A DNA stretch of 38,628 nucleotides from an uncultured Clostridia bacterium (GCA_947624405.1 CANQKB010000002.1:1-38628); one strand, 5' to 3'; counted from the stretch's first letter, positions 17,607 through 27,419 are shown. The notes: generated from the sequence alone by a model not told the origin. Numbers and translations: made by a program.

Positions 17607-17858
17607 TTATATTAAAATTATTTTTGCTCCATTTTTTATATTTGCATCTTTAATATTTAAATTTACATCATATACCTCTCCTGTTAGTTTATCGTATAAA
17701 TATGGCATTTTTACTGGTTTATAATATCCTCCGCTAAATTCATTTATTGCTTTAACTAATAAAGTAATAACATTTGCTATTTTTTTATTTAATGGTAACC
17801 AAATATCATACTCCACTTCTAATACTGGAACATACAAATTAACTAATACTTTATTCAT
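17607..17858 (-). CDS. esaB: EsaB/YukD-like ubiquitin-fold T7SS protein
   Basis: 83 aa. Pattern ...YDIWLPLNKKIANVITLLVKAI... with a C-terminal ...IKDANIKNGAKIILI, typical of YukD/EsaB. Overlaps the essC stop by 8 nt. Confidence 0.7.
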   Translation of the reverse strand: MNKVLVNLYVPVLEVEYDIWLPLNKKIANVITLLVKAINEFSGGYYKPVKMPYLYDKLTGEVYDVNLNIKDANIKNGAKIILI

Positions 17859-20800
17859 TTTCTTCTCCCGCTTCCTTCATTCCTACTAGTTTTATCAAGG
17901 TCGGTATTCCTTGTATAACCACATAGCCATAACTACGTCCACAATTATTCTCTAAATTTTGTCTATCACTTATTTCTATAAAATATTGATCCTCTATGCC
18001 ATTTCCAATGTAAATACCCGAATCATTTTCTACATATTTTTTGTACCATTCGTCATATTCATGGTTTTTAAATTTGTTTGTTTTTTCAATAATGATAAAA
18101 CTATATTTTTCTTTTTCCTTCGCATTATTTATCATTTCATAAAAATATTCTTCTTGTACATCACTTATAAATTTATCTAATCCATTAATAATTACTATGG
18201 TATGTGAAATCGTTGCATTTATTTTTTTATTATTCATTTTTGCCATAAATCTATCAATTTCATCACTCAAGCTCTCTTTTTTTGCTTTAATTGTATTTTC
18301 TGCATCAAATAAAACAATTTCAATACCATCTATCATACTTATTTCTTTTATCAAATAATTTACAAATTCAATTACATCTTCTATATTTTTTGATGTCATC
18401 GTACATACAAAATTCTTCTTAAAATCATAATTGAATATCTTTAACTCTTTTTTAGTTATTCCAATTGGTACTTTTGAAATATCTTTAATATAATCTTTTA
18501 TGTCTTCAACCAAAATTCTATCTGGTATTGTAGGTATCTCTGATGCCTCTGGGTTATTTTGTTTTTTTAGAATTTCTATTGTTTCATTAATTGTAGAATT
18601 ATAGTCAACTGCTTGACATATTTTGGCTGTTTGAAATTCATATACTGTATCATCATTTATGGTTACTAATCCTCTTCCAAATATGCTTGACGGTTTCTTT
18701 TTTCCGGCTTTTTCAAATATATTATAGTAATCATCTTCATTGTTTAATTGTAATGCTATTTTTTTCCTGAAGTTCTGTGTTAACCTATATCTCATATTAT
18801 TATAAGCACTAGTTGTTACTGTAAATACAATTCCACATTTTATTCCTTCACGAGTTATTGTTAAAAACAAATCATCAAATTTATCACCATACATTTCATC
18901 AAAAGCTTCATAATTATTTAATATTACTACTAACATTGGCATAGTATTGCCTTTTGTATTTACATATAATTCATAGTCTCCATTGTAATTTGACAATATA
19001 TTTTTTCTTTCCTTTATTTCTCTTTGTATCATTTCAAAAAATCTACTAATTTTTTCAAATTCACTTATAAATGTAACATCTCCAACATGTGGACTGTTTT
19101 TAAATATTTTTAATACTTCACTTCCAAAATCTAATATATAAATTTGAACTTCTTTTGAAGAATATGTTGTAATCAAATCATATACTATTGTGCTTAACAA
19201 TGTTTCTTTACCACTCTCTGCATTACCATAAATAATGACATTTCCACTTTTAGTGTAATTAATGTTTACTAATCCTTGTTTTTGATTATATGGATCATCA
19301 TATTCTCCAATAATAACATTTATTTCTTTTCCTTTAGCTGATACAGGATATTTCTTCTTTAACTTATCTAAATATATATTTTCTGGAATATCCTCTAACC
19401 ATAAATTATTTGTCTTAATATTCTCTTTTTTTGCTAATTCAATAATATATCTAACTATATTAGTTAATTGTTCTCCATAACTTACTACTCTTTTTGAGCC
19501 TATATTATCAACATCTTTTATAGGTATTCCTACGTTTGATACGAATTGTATAGATGTATCTACTGTTTTTTTTGTAGTATTTGATGGATAATAAGGAGCA
19601 CCAGCCCAAGCAGATTGACCTAATACAAAATAATCGTCATTTCCAACTTGCATATAAAATTGTCCTGAGCCTTTTAGGTTGGCTGCATCTGGTTTTTTGA
19701 TAACATCATTACTATCTTCTACGTCTTGAACTTTTAAACATATAGCAAACTTACTATTACTTCTAATTTGATCATTTACTATACCTGCTGGTTTTTGAGT
19801 AGCAAGTATTAAGTGTACTCCTAAACTTCTTCCTATTCTTGATACACTGATTAGTTCGTCCATAAATTCTTCTTGTTGTTGTTTTAATTCTGCGAATTCA
19901 TCACAAATGATTAATAGGTGTGGTATTGGTTTTTTCACTATACCTTCATGATATAATTTTTGATATTTATATATATCTATTGTTCCTTCATCTACTAAGT
20001 TTCTTGCTTCATTAAACATTATTTGTCTTCTTCTTAATTCACTTTGTATAGATGCGAGTGATCTTTGTAATCCATTAGTATCAATATTAGTTATTGTTCC
20101 AACTATATGTGGTAATTTTGTATCTCCTTTTTGAAAAGCACCTGCTAATCCTCCACCTTTATAATCAATAAGCAAGAATGACACATCATCAGGAGCATAA
20201 TTTATTGCAAGTGACAATATATATGTTATTATAAATTCACTTTTTCCAGAACCTGTACTTCCTGCTATTAGTCCATGTGGTCCATGCACTTTTTCATGAA
20301 TGTCTAATATTATCGGCATTCCCGATGAATCAATCCCTATTGGTGCTTTTAATGATATTGTTGTATCGTTTCTTTTCCATCTTTCTAGAATATTTAATTG
20401 TTCAATTAATCCTACATCATACATTTCTAAAAATGTATATGTGTTAGGAAGTAATGTTGAACCATTTGCTGAATACCTTATTGGTATATTTGATATGATT
20501 GGTATTAATTTTTCAAAAAATATTTCAAAATCTATGTCTATAGCTATTTCTCTTTGATTATTTTCCGAAATTTCGTTGTCAAATATTATTCCTTTTTTAT
20601 CTTTTTCTAAACTAACGAATGTTTTGCATTCATTTGGTAATTGCGATAAATCACTTGTTATTGATAGTAAGCTAAATCCCAAATTAGTTTTATTTTTCTG
20701 TATTTCATTTATTATCTTTAAATTTTCTACTCTTTTATAATCATCTGTTATAATTAAATAATATGGCATAAACATTTTATAGCTTGCATCATTATTTTCA

Positions 20801-22442
20801 TATGATTGCCTATTTCTCAATTCCTGTTCTAGATAACTTGAGATTTCTCTCATTTCATCAATATCATCTGCAAAAAATCTTATTGTTTTTGAAAAATTCC
20901 AAACATGTGGTAACATTTTTACATATTCCCAATATTTGTCATTACAATTTTTAAATCCTCATAACTATGAAATGCTATTAATTGTATTATAATATTTTGC
21001 ATTATTTTTTTGAATACTTCTTCATTTTTCACTATTATACCTGAGATATTCTTCTCCACCAATGAAGTAACTATCGGAGCCATTTCTATCATTTTTGAGT
21101 TATCTGCTATCGAATGCAATATTTCAAGTAGATTGTCATCTTCCATTTCAAATTGTTCTTCTGGAAATTGAAGATCAATTTTTAAAGGCACATTACCAAT
21201 TCCCCATCTTATAGATAAGAAGTCATAATCTTCAATTTTTCTTTCCCACAACCTAGAATCTTTGTGTAAAATTATTTTTGTACATTCTTCTATTGATACA
21301 TAATTTGCATATAGAATTTCTCTTTGTTTGTTCTTAATTTTGTTTATTGTAGTCCTTTTTTGATTCAAATATTCTTTATATCTTTTTTGTCTTTTTTCTT
21401 CATATCTAACTTTTCTCTTTTTTTCCCATTTTTGAGTTAATATAGGGAAAAGTATCATACTTATTAGCATTACAAAAGCCATTGCTAATGAAAAAAATGT
21501 TTCTTTCGCTGAAGCTGTACCATTAACTCTTCCATCTATTGTCATGACAATGGAAATCATCATCATCAATCCCATTGATAAACTTGAACCTAACACTAAG
21601 ATTGCTGGCATTTCTTCTTTATCACCTATTTGAGGTGGTGCATCTATTTTTACCTTTTCTTCTTCTATTATATTGGTAATCCTAGGAGCTCTTGAAAAAT
21701 AATCTTTACTACTATACAATTCTATTTCTTCATCATCTATTATTTCATTTGCATTTGCTTCTAATTTTTGTACTTCATCATTTAATTGGAAAAATTGCCT
21801 ACTATATTTTACTTTGTTTGAAGGATTATTTATAAATATACTGTTTCCCATTATAATTATCTTTAAACCTAGTATAAATATTACATCTCCATTAAGTAAT
21901 ACTCTTGCACTACTTTCTGCACTACCACCATTTATAAATGTTCCTATTCTTTTATCAAAGTTATCAATTACCCATCTACCATTCATTTGAAAAATTTTTG
22001 CATGTATATCAGATACAAGAAAATTATCATAAATAATTTGGCATTGAGAACCACTTCCAATATAAAATTCTTTTATATTCTCTATATTTAAGTGATAAAT
22101 CTCATTGTCACAAGCAGGTGCACAATATAATATATATATTTCATCATCCATATCATCTAACATGAGTGCATACATATTATATTCTTTTAATATAGTTCCT
22201 TTACTATATATACCAGCCATTTTCTTTAGTTTTATTTTATCATCACTTATATCTATAGCATTTGAATTAATTACCTTTACATTTGCATCTGTTTTTATCT
22301 GCCAATGTCCATCTTTTCCTTCTACATTTACCAGTTTTTTCTCTTTTCCTAGCGTATTATCAGTTATCCAATAATTGCCTATTGGAATTTTAGGTAAAAC
22401 TACCTTGTATAAAGAATTTTTACCTATTAATGTTACTAGCAA
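17851..22442 (-). CDS. essC: T7SSb FtsK/SpoIIIE-family ATPase EssC, present as two ORFs (20919-22442 and 17851-20916) separated by a -1 frame break
   Basis: The N-terminal ORF has an FHA-like region, two TM helices and ...LIAFHSYEDLKIVMT. The downstream frame reads KYWEYVKMLPHVW (the conserved WLPH region), followed by Walker A sites GSTGSGKSE and GNAESGKET. TTG start at 22442 follows GGGGGTGA. Confidence 0.9.
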
Positions 22443-26634: not shown

Positions 26635-26804
26635 TTTTATTTTCTCCTTTCACACTATTTTTTATGTTGACATTGTCATATTTTATAATTGCTCTTTTGT
26701 TATATTTTTATCCTAAATTTACATTTTTATTTAGCATTTAATTTCTTAAATACTTTCCTTGGCAACCTCTTATTATTATAGTTGCCAAAGAAAATATTTA
26801 AATT

Positions 26805-27419
26805 TTAGTTAACAGTGTTAGCTGTTTCTGTTGCTTGGATGTCTTCAAGTGTTTGTTGCATTAATTTTGAGAATGAACTTTCAATATTATCAAAAGATTG
26901 AATTATACTTTGTTTTAATTTTGTAAATTTTGCTTTGAATGCCTCTGATGCTTCTGATTGCCATTTAATCTTGTTGTATGTTGATTCTATTGTGTTCATT
27001 TTTTGTTTTGCATTTTTGAAATTTGTTGATACTTTTGTTTTTACAGCTGTAACATCACTTGTTAAAAATTTCATTCCGACATCATTTGGTGCAGCTATAT
27101 TTGTTATCTTTTTAGGTGAAGTTTTTGCTGCACTTGTTGCTTTTGAACCTTTATCAGCTTGAGCGTAGTTATTTGCAATAGTTTCCAATGCAAAAGGAAT
27201 TTCTCCTACTACTAATTCTAGCATTTCGTTAAGTTCAGGAGCTAATTCATTGAATTCTTTTACTAATGCATTATATCTTTTTCCATACCAAGAATTGTGC
27301 ATGTTAGTAATGCTTTTATATGCATTTGTAAGTTCTGTATTTAGTTCTTGTCCATAACTTCTCATTTGTTTAGCCTGTCCTGGGATTGCTTCATAATCAA
27401 CATTCATTATTTTTGCCAT
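26805..27419 (-). CDS. WXG100-family T7SS substrate with a second, degenerate WXG100-like repeat fused in tandem
   Basis: 204 aa. The N-terminal half has W44-Y-G46 (HNSWYGKRY) in a helix-turn-helix context. The C-terminal half has an equivalent KWQSEASEAFKAKF about 42 residues into the second repeat. Confidence 0.7.
   Translation of the reverse strand: MAKIMNVDYEAIPGQAKQMRSYGQELNTELTNAYKSITNMHNSWYGKRYNALVKEFNELAPELNEMLELVVGEIPFALETIANNYAQADKGSKATSAAKTSPKKITNIAAPNDVGMKFLTSDVTAVKTKVSTNFKNAKQKMNTIESTYNKIKWQSEASEAFKAKFTKLKQSIIQSFDNIESSFSKLMQQTLEDIQATETANTVN

Follow-up and report, generated by a model that had tools for sequence, protein, structure and literature searches.

A compact type VII secretion locus with EssC, a ubiquitin-like protein and substrates, and without recognisable EssB, EsaA or EssA, in an uncultured Clostridia bacterium

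The Firmicute type VII secretion system (T7SSb), represented by Ess of Staphylococcus aureus and Yuk/Yue of Bacillus subtilis, combines the motor protein EssC/YukB with EssB/YukC, EsaA/YueB, and EssA/YueC; secretion by S. aureus needs essA, essB, and esaA, and B. subtilis needs most of the equivalent set. In the cryo-electron microscopy model from B. subtilis, the DUF domain, stalk, and transmembrane segments of YukB form the central channel and YukC a peripheral crown, and the ubiquitin-like YukD binds YukB at its FHA and DUF domains and at a D1 hairpin (PMC12637312). All the subtypes defined in the 2024 survey by Garrett, Higginson and Palmer (T7SSc to T7SSj) list at least five components, and none consists of just the A, B, and C proteins (PMC11217815). 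Here we describe a locus at positions 17607–27419 (minus strand) of a 38.6-kb stretch of DNA (CANQKB010000002.1, 38,628 nucleotides; hereafter the window) from an uncultured Clostridia bacterium. We consider it probable that the locus represents a core-only type VII secretion system (T7SS), composed of EssC, a YukD/EsaB-type protein, a fused WXG protein, and a toxin cassette, that the usual partners are absent, and that the frame breaks found in its essC and toxin genes are assembly artefacts.

The window is a whole contig of a 1.26-Mb genome assembly (101 contigs, 95% complete, ~28% G+C). Ten open reading frames (ORFs), all on the minus strand, lie between a pdaA-like deacetylase gene and gdpP, the housekeeping flanks that an earlier note on this DNA had recognised and that profile matches supported. 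Profile searches and ORF calls located all the genes named in that note, with the WXG100, DUF4176, helper, toxin, essC, and ubiquitin-like genes in the order it gave. The 507-aa (amino acid) ORF next to the ATPase part is not an immunity gene and turned out to be the 5′ part of essC; an immunity candidate does exist as a 97-aa ORF, and the 232-aa ORF is the C-terminal domain of the toxin. Four of the ORFs (780, 232, 97, and 83 aa) had no family match in the profile searches. A scan for promoters and terminators gave counts no better than those of shuffled sequence. The genes and their flanks are as follows.

27534–28337: flanking pdaA-like deacetylase gene (TIGR02884, 284 bits, slightly below the cut-off)
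26805–27419, minus strand: first gene of the locus, fused double WXG100 protein, 204 aa (PF06013, 52 bits; TIGR03930, 52.9 bits)
26362–26634, minus strand: DUF4176 protein (PF13780, 96.4 bits)
25881–26279, minus strand: helical helper, 132 aa (weak YwqH-like match, PF16888, E 0.0014)
23529–25871, minus strand: 780-aa ORF, N-terminal and middle parts of the effector (homology to the effectors of relatives)
22778–23545, minus strand: toxin domain at the effector's C-terminus, read in a different frame (22778–23476 for the 232-aa ORF as called)
22475–22768, minus strand: candidate immunity protein, 97 aa (homologues in the related loci L033 and L051)
20919–22442, minus strand: 5′ part of essC, 507 aa (FHA, PF00498, 38.8 bits; TIGR03928 positions 5–244, 153 bits)
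20921–20958, minus strand: break in essC (19-nt deletion at about 20943/20944)
17851–20916, minus strand: 3′ part of essC, 1021 aa (TIGR03928 positions 246–1294, 805 bits; cut-off, 778)
17607–17858, minus strand: ubiquitin-like protein, 83 aa, overlapping the essC stop and lacking a C-terminal Gly-Gly
15411–17432: flanking GdpP gene (DHH, DHHA1, and GGDEF_GdpP domains)

The overall organisation resembles that of T7SSb. The EssC protein has the same architecture, scores above the NCBIfam EssC cut-off, and finds B. subtilis YukB as its best match in the PDB (E 2.7e-92); the ubiquitin-like gene directly follows essC, and its WXG100 substrate is accompanied by a DUF4176 chaperone and a helical helper as well as polymorphic toxin–immunity cargo. 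The domain set of EssC consists of FHA domain(s), two transmembrane helices, a stalk, a DUF/D0 domain, and three FtsK/SpoIIIE ATPase domains (PF00498 and PF01580). Of these, the 507-aa ORF encodes the FHA region, both hydrophobic helices, the stalk, and the beginning of the DUF/D0 domain, and aligns up to about residue 505 of full-length EssC proteins of ~1530 residues. The 1021-aa ORF supplies what is left of the DUF domain together with all three ATPase domains, with Walker A and Walker B of D1 intact. On visual inspection, the canonical Arg and Asn are missing from the FHA domain and the Ser and His are retained. In contrast to T7SSb, however, neither the locus nor the genome has a match above the cut-off to EssB/YukC, EsaA/YueB, or EssA/YueC; the WXG protein is a fused double hairpin of 204 residues instead of a homodimer of ~100-aa subunits; EssC belongs to a lineage placed outside the clade of YukC-positive systems; and the N-terminal domain of the effector is not of the Pfam LXG type.

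The earlier note had described a T7SS locus with essC, a ubiquitin-like gene, and substrates but without EssB, EsaA, and EssA, and indeed no local ORF matches the models of these three proteins. The hidden Markov model (HMM) search of the whole genome that it proposed for them also returned nothing above the cut-off, as fits a reduced variant. EssB/YukC (PF10140 and TIGR03926) had no match above the cut-off in the genome, and EsaA (TIGR03929) had none there even at E ≤ 1. The best match to EssA (TIGR03927) in the genome reached 18.6 bits (cut-off, 32.45) and lay inside a 657-aa frame with stops; this model is short and gave weak matches in eight of 14 control genomes. In a sample of 400 genomes of the phylum, five canonical genomes showed YukC beside essC at 252–419 bits, among them a 1.3-Mb genome of the same class; because the model recovered the canonical systems in these five control genomes, the test for the absence of YukC is sensitive. 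Furthermore, none of 40 other genomes with the same EssC family (1.0–2.2 Mb) contained YukC or EsaA above the cut-off.

Effector islands with orphan essC fragments are known in staphylococci and listeriae, so that the locus might be considered an accessory island of this kind, relying on a complete T7SSb encoded elsewhere. We found no support for such an island, which we regard as very improbable: EssC is single-copy in the genome, the sole further match there being to an FtsK-type protein, at 101 bits; YukC, EsaA, and EssA were not found in it; and all the genomic matches to the WXG, DUF4176, helper, ubiquitin-like, and effector N-terminal domains are located on the window contig. A full essA/essB/esaA set at another locus, accompanied by a further essC, which the earlier note had named as the finding that would overturn its reading, was thus not found. 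Between the two options which that note had left open, that of missing parts encoded elsewhere gains no support from a 95%-complete genome with one EssC and no match above the cut-off to the three partners, and that of a reduced apparatus is favoured by the recurrence of the same EssC family in about 80 species.

Homologues of this EssC number in the thousands and are nearly all full-length; the full-length members (~1530 aa) are 60–71% identical to the product of the 3′ part of the window gene. We gathered 80 loci from distinct uncultured gut species, labelled as Clostridia or, for the more distant ones, as Bacilli or Erysipelotrichaceae. Upon clustering of their ORFs, EssC and the ubiquitin-like gene were the sole invariant pair; in 82 of 85 loci the latter comes immediately after essC. 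The fused 204-aa WXG gene occurs in 52 related loci, the toxin cassettes vary, and each locus tends to have different housekeeping genes at its flanks. The distribution is patchy, as none of 24 congeners and none of 16 genomes of the same order possess the EssC system. Synteny upstream of gdpP is broken relative to four congeners, whose gene at that place sits on another contig of the window genome; a clean insertion site in the congeners was sought, and only this synteny break, no exact empty site, was found.

Several neighbours of essC in the related loci were also considered. In a sub-clade (L065–L074 and L079), the 204-aa WXG gene was not found near essC, and a protein of 265–290 aa without a Pfam match adjoins essC (for example, L065:7284–8150 and L069:2252–3046); it has no homologue in the window genome. 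In the more distant, Bacilli-type loci (L090, L094 (7457–8374), L100, L102, and L103), a conserved gene of ~305 aa without a Pfam match lies directly upstream of essC, and downstream there are a conserved gene of ~500 aa, also without a Pfam match, and then WXG-like genes of ~100 aa. A conserved gene of ~1040 aa upstream of essC in distant Bacilli-type loci had the size of EsaA and proved to encode isoleucyl-tRNA synthetase. One sub-clade has a gene of 273–282 aa downstream of its ubiquitin-like gene. Contig C3 of the window genome carries a strong homologue of it that is unlinked to the locus, so that it is probably an unrelated housekeeping gene.

An EssC tree was built with FastTree from 50 C-terminal regions and midpoint-rooted. 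In this tree the compact family, together with one kinase-associated locus, forms a clade (100% support) that is separate from the T7SSb clade with YukC. The nearest outgroup locus (L141; G380:C2:100300–120200) encodes two zinc-ribbon Ser/Thr kinases and a zinc-ribbon tetratricopeptide repeat (TPR) protein, as well as an ABC transporter that begins with two FHA domains. It resembles the kinase-associated T7SSj or T7SSe, the two Ser/Thr kinases and the TPR protein around essC being as in the description of T7SSj (PMC11217815).

Comparison with the surveyed subtypes likewise places the compact lineage apart. T7SSj and T7SSe share with it an FHA-bearing TsxC, a ubiquitin-like TsxB, and a WXG100 TsxA (PMC11217815). 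In contrast to T7SSd, T7SSe, and T7SSj, neither the window locus nor the set of conserved neighbours in the 85 loci includes the membrane Ser/Thr kinase TsxD and the large TsxI/J/K proteins, components of a kind that does occur around essC of the nearest outgroup (G380); with respect to T7SSj and T7SSe, equally absent are a PPM phosphatase, a DUF6382–FHA protein, a wall-spanning TsxI-type protein, and a small membrane protein of the TsxK/TsxH type. T7SSf and T7SSg are the simplest published Firmicute variants (PMC11217815). T7SSf, found in Clostridia, has A, B, and FHA-bearing C proteins as does our locus, and in addition the PPM phosphatase TsfF, the DUF6382–FHA protein TsfJ, and the AAA+ protein TsfV (PMC11217815), whereas no domain of TsfF, TsfJ, or TsfV was detected in any ORF between pdaA and gdpP or among the conserved neighbours in the 85 loci. 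The ‘relatively simple’ T7SSg (A1, A2, B, C, and L) has an FHA-less TsgC, two WXG proteins, a DUF5050 β-propeller protein TsgL, and adjacent Tad pilus genes (PMC11217815); EssC of the window differs in having an FHA domain, and its locus contains neither a β-propeller nor Tad genes. Altogether, the compact lineage matches no published subtype from T7SSb to T7SSj.

Several points weigh against the core-only reading of the locus and of its frame breaks. Very divergent or unlinked partners may lie beyond the reach of HMMs, EssA being especially small and poorly modelled. Nine of the 40 family genomes encode unlinked proteins of 670–750 aa with sub-threshold matches to the N-terminal part of EsaA (43–66 bits; cut-off, 122), none of which occurs in the window genome. 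The EssC tree is quick, midpoint-rooted, and lightly sampled, with few reference genomes; secretion by members of the compact lineage is a prediction from gene content; and the lesion in essC, where 19 nt are deleted within a folded domain, is atypical for a single-base error and may hence be real. As to the EsaA-like proteins themselves, which were found in L108–L110 (G050, G048, and G056) and in six other genomes, they are probably membrane proteins of the YhgE/Pip type.

The first two of these points bear on an apparatus that is not truly minimal, in which analogues of EssB, EsaA, and EssA would be either unlinked or too divergent for the models. Such a role might fall, for example, to membrane proteins of the housekeeping set, to a kinase of the PrkC type with the FHA domains of EssC as its target, or to YhgE/Pip-like proteins. 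The FHA domain(s) retained by EssC, which bind EssB in T7SSb (PMC12637312), are consistent with such analogues, as are the Ser/Thr kinases, TPR protein, and FHA–ABC transporter of the nearest outgroup locus, the additional gene of 265–305 aa beside essC in some sub-clades, and the EsaA-like proteins elsewhere in nine genomes. However, the ubiquitin-like gene is the only gene conserved beside essC over the 85 loci, and the sub-clade-specific neighbours lack homologues in the window genome with the single, probably housekeeping, exception on contig C3. The small size of the genomes and the lack of any EsaA-like match in the window genome also speak against it, and we judge hidden analogues to be rather unlikely.

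The two proteins that would accompany EssC in a core-only system were examined by structure prediction. The WXG100 domain corresponds to residues 5–91 of the 204-aa protein (TIGR03930 cut-off, 44.85 bits). In an alignment of 35 homologues, W44-x-G46 is invariant, a second conserved Trp (W153) is not accompanied by Gly, and the C-terminal tail is conserved. The AlphaFold2 model (pLDDT, 91.8; predicted template-modelling score (pTM), 0.87) has four long helices, at residues 12–40, 47–90, 120–149, and 156–202, and fits a covalently fused WXG100 pseudo-dimer, equivalent to TsxA/EsxA. A Foldseek search with this model returned only generic four-helix bundles (such as Dps and ferritin; E ≥ 0.014). 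The 83-aa protein was predicted to adopt a ubiquitin-like β-grasp fold (pLDDT, 96.8), with Foldseek template-modelling scores of 0.80–0.83 to the ubiquitin-like domains of mycobacterial EccD and of 0.76 to YukD (2bps). YukD is the commonest Pfam match within its family, at sub-threshold level in eight of 41 members; a profile search of the PDB with the family gave no match, so that only the fold comparison was informative. Judging from the predicted fold, the 83-aa protein is a divergent equivalent of EsaB/YukD/TsxB.

Both large genes of the locus are interrupted in the window. The essC gene is split over two ORFs by an out-of-frame deletion of 19 nt relative to all eight relatives compared by DNA and protein alignment; the deletion costs about six residues of a conserved strand in the DUF domain and shifts the frame in a homopolymer-rich region. 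A single missing A in an A5 run and a –1 slippage on a U_UUA_AAA heptamer were considered as causes of the break, and are excluded by the 19-nt deletion, which removes conserved residues. The effector gene is also frame-broken: its 1212-aa single-ORF homologue from L033 aligns in frame –2 to position 23637 and then in frame –3 from 23542 to 22865. This frame change, located in a short A-run near 23560, leaves an HExxH motif outside both called ORFs.

Frame breaks are not confined to the secretion locus. In the same window, ftsH (10541–12258, also ~28 codons short), a tilS-like gene (12454–13507), and an M16 peptidase gene (7777–9049) are broken, and genome-wide 33 of 152 conserved genes (22%) are split across frames, compared with 17 of 332 (5%) in the same test on 80 other loci from metagenome-assembled genomes (MAGs). 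This suggests either an indel-ridden assembly or unusually heavy pseudogenisation. Because ftsH, the tilS-like gene, and the M16 peptidase gene are hit as well and split genes are in excess throughout the genome, the breaks are not read as biology specific to secretion, and those in essC and the effector gene are probably errors of a poor consensus in an indel-ridden assembly.

Alternatively, the locus could be a decaying remnant in this strain, with essC and the effector gene as true pseudogenes and nothing secreted. Two independent lesions fall inside 10 kb, that of essC removes a conserved strand and, with 19 nt, exceeds the usual homopolymer error, and the lack of the system in all 24 congeners makes it dispensable in the genus. 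Decay nevertheless appears unlikely to us, because the frame breaks occur genome-wide at the high rate given above and also strike ftsH and tilS, which are normally indispensable, because both the essC deletion and the shift in the toxin gene lie in A/T homopolymer-rich sequence, and because no other gene of the locus is broken and all of them are well conserved. With essC and the toxin gene frame-broken, the window copy is in any case a poor exemplar of the lineage, of which intact relatives are available (for example, L020, L023, and L024).

Among the cargo genes, the 780-aa ORF is, from residue 1 to about 550–650, 30–39% identical to proteins of 850–1212 aa in relatives, whose C-termini differ. 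It begins with a helical N-terminal targeting domain of ~100 residues common to other effectors; its middle region is hydrophobic and rich in Gly and Ala. The C-terminus of one homologous effector (L033) is matched by the 232-aa ORF, and the small gene after it by the 97-aa ORF; homologues of the 97-aa protein in L033 and L051 are 42–47% identical, and the copy in L033 stands directly 3′ of a toxin with a related C-terminal domain. The shared N-terminal part, the variable C-terminus, and the small downstream gene characterise the predicted effector of ~1000 aa as a polymorphic toxin with an immunity gene. The earlier note had called it LXG-like: the architecture, with an N-domain held in common, a C-terminus that varies, an immunity gene, and a helper gene upstream as well as a DUF4176 gene, does fit LXG polymorphic toxins, but the 780-aa protein has no match to Pfam LXG (PF04740) at E ≤ 0.01, and ten N-terminal domains of the family reach only E 0.03–0.28. 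The toxin's C-terminal domain starts with an HExxH motif (HELEH, ~23519–23533), upstream of the start of the 232-aa ORF, which reads HESGH or HELGH in the two homologues compared (L033 and L051). The C-terminal domain has no match in Pfam or the PDB; to go by this motif alone, it may be a zinc peptidase representing a new zincin-like T7 toxin domain.

The 132-aa all-helical helper, encoded just upstream of the effector, may be analogous to Lap/YwqH proteins; its cluster occurs in 19 related loci, usually directly before the toxin. The DUF4176 gene is present in 29 related loci, and its product is likely an effector chaperone, as DUF4176 proteins stabilise or chaperone LXG toxins in streptococci (PMC12482557). 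A second effector module is located 9 kb away from the locus, at the contig end.

36822–38399, minus strand: second effector, 525 aa (N-domain HMM, E 7e-19; PF18013, 41 bits; PF08239, 30 bits)
36438–36794, minus strand: helper paralog beside the second effector, 118 aa (helper HMM, E 5e-34)

The second effector combines the same T7-type N-terminal domain with phage-tail-lysozyme-like (Phage_lysozyme2) and SH3b (SH3_3) domains, which suggest an effector of the cell-wall-hydrolase type, and the 118-aa paralog is 30% identical to the 132-aa helper. Between this module and housekeeping genes, a 510-aa protein with four WG-containing β repeats (PF14903) is encoded at 34585–36117 of the window.

Because YukB forms the channel in B. 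subtilis while YukC is peripheral, a channel with only EssC and the ubiquitin-like protein is possible. By analogy with that structure, we infer that hexamers of EssC alone would form the membrane channel, with EssB, EsaA, and EssA truly absent, and that the ubiquitin-like protein would clamp the FHA, DUF, and D1 regions of EssC in the manner of YukD; the retained FHA domain might then serve for binding of the ubiquitin-like protein or for regulation. The fused WXG protein and the complex of helper and effector would dock on the ATPase domains and be exported, and this export may serve contact-dependent competition in the gut. A more far-reaching proposal, which we put forward tentatively and with some doubt, is that EssC and one ubiquitin-like protein constitute the complete translocon of these small-genome gut bacteria, the fused WXG100 pseudo-dimer being an obligatory co-substrate, and that EssB, EsaA, and EssA are lineage-specific scaffolds outside the conserved export mechanism.

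If a lineage does operate with only a motor, a ubiquitin-like clamp, and a fused WXG protein, it would tell which parts of the type VII mechanism are universal, and would be the simplest system for reconstitution and imaging. The occurrence of this lineage, with its polymorphic toxin cassettes, in abundant uncultured gut bacteria of small genome size bears on competition within the gut microbiome.

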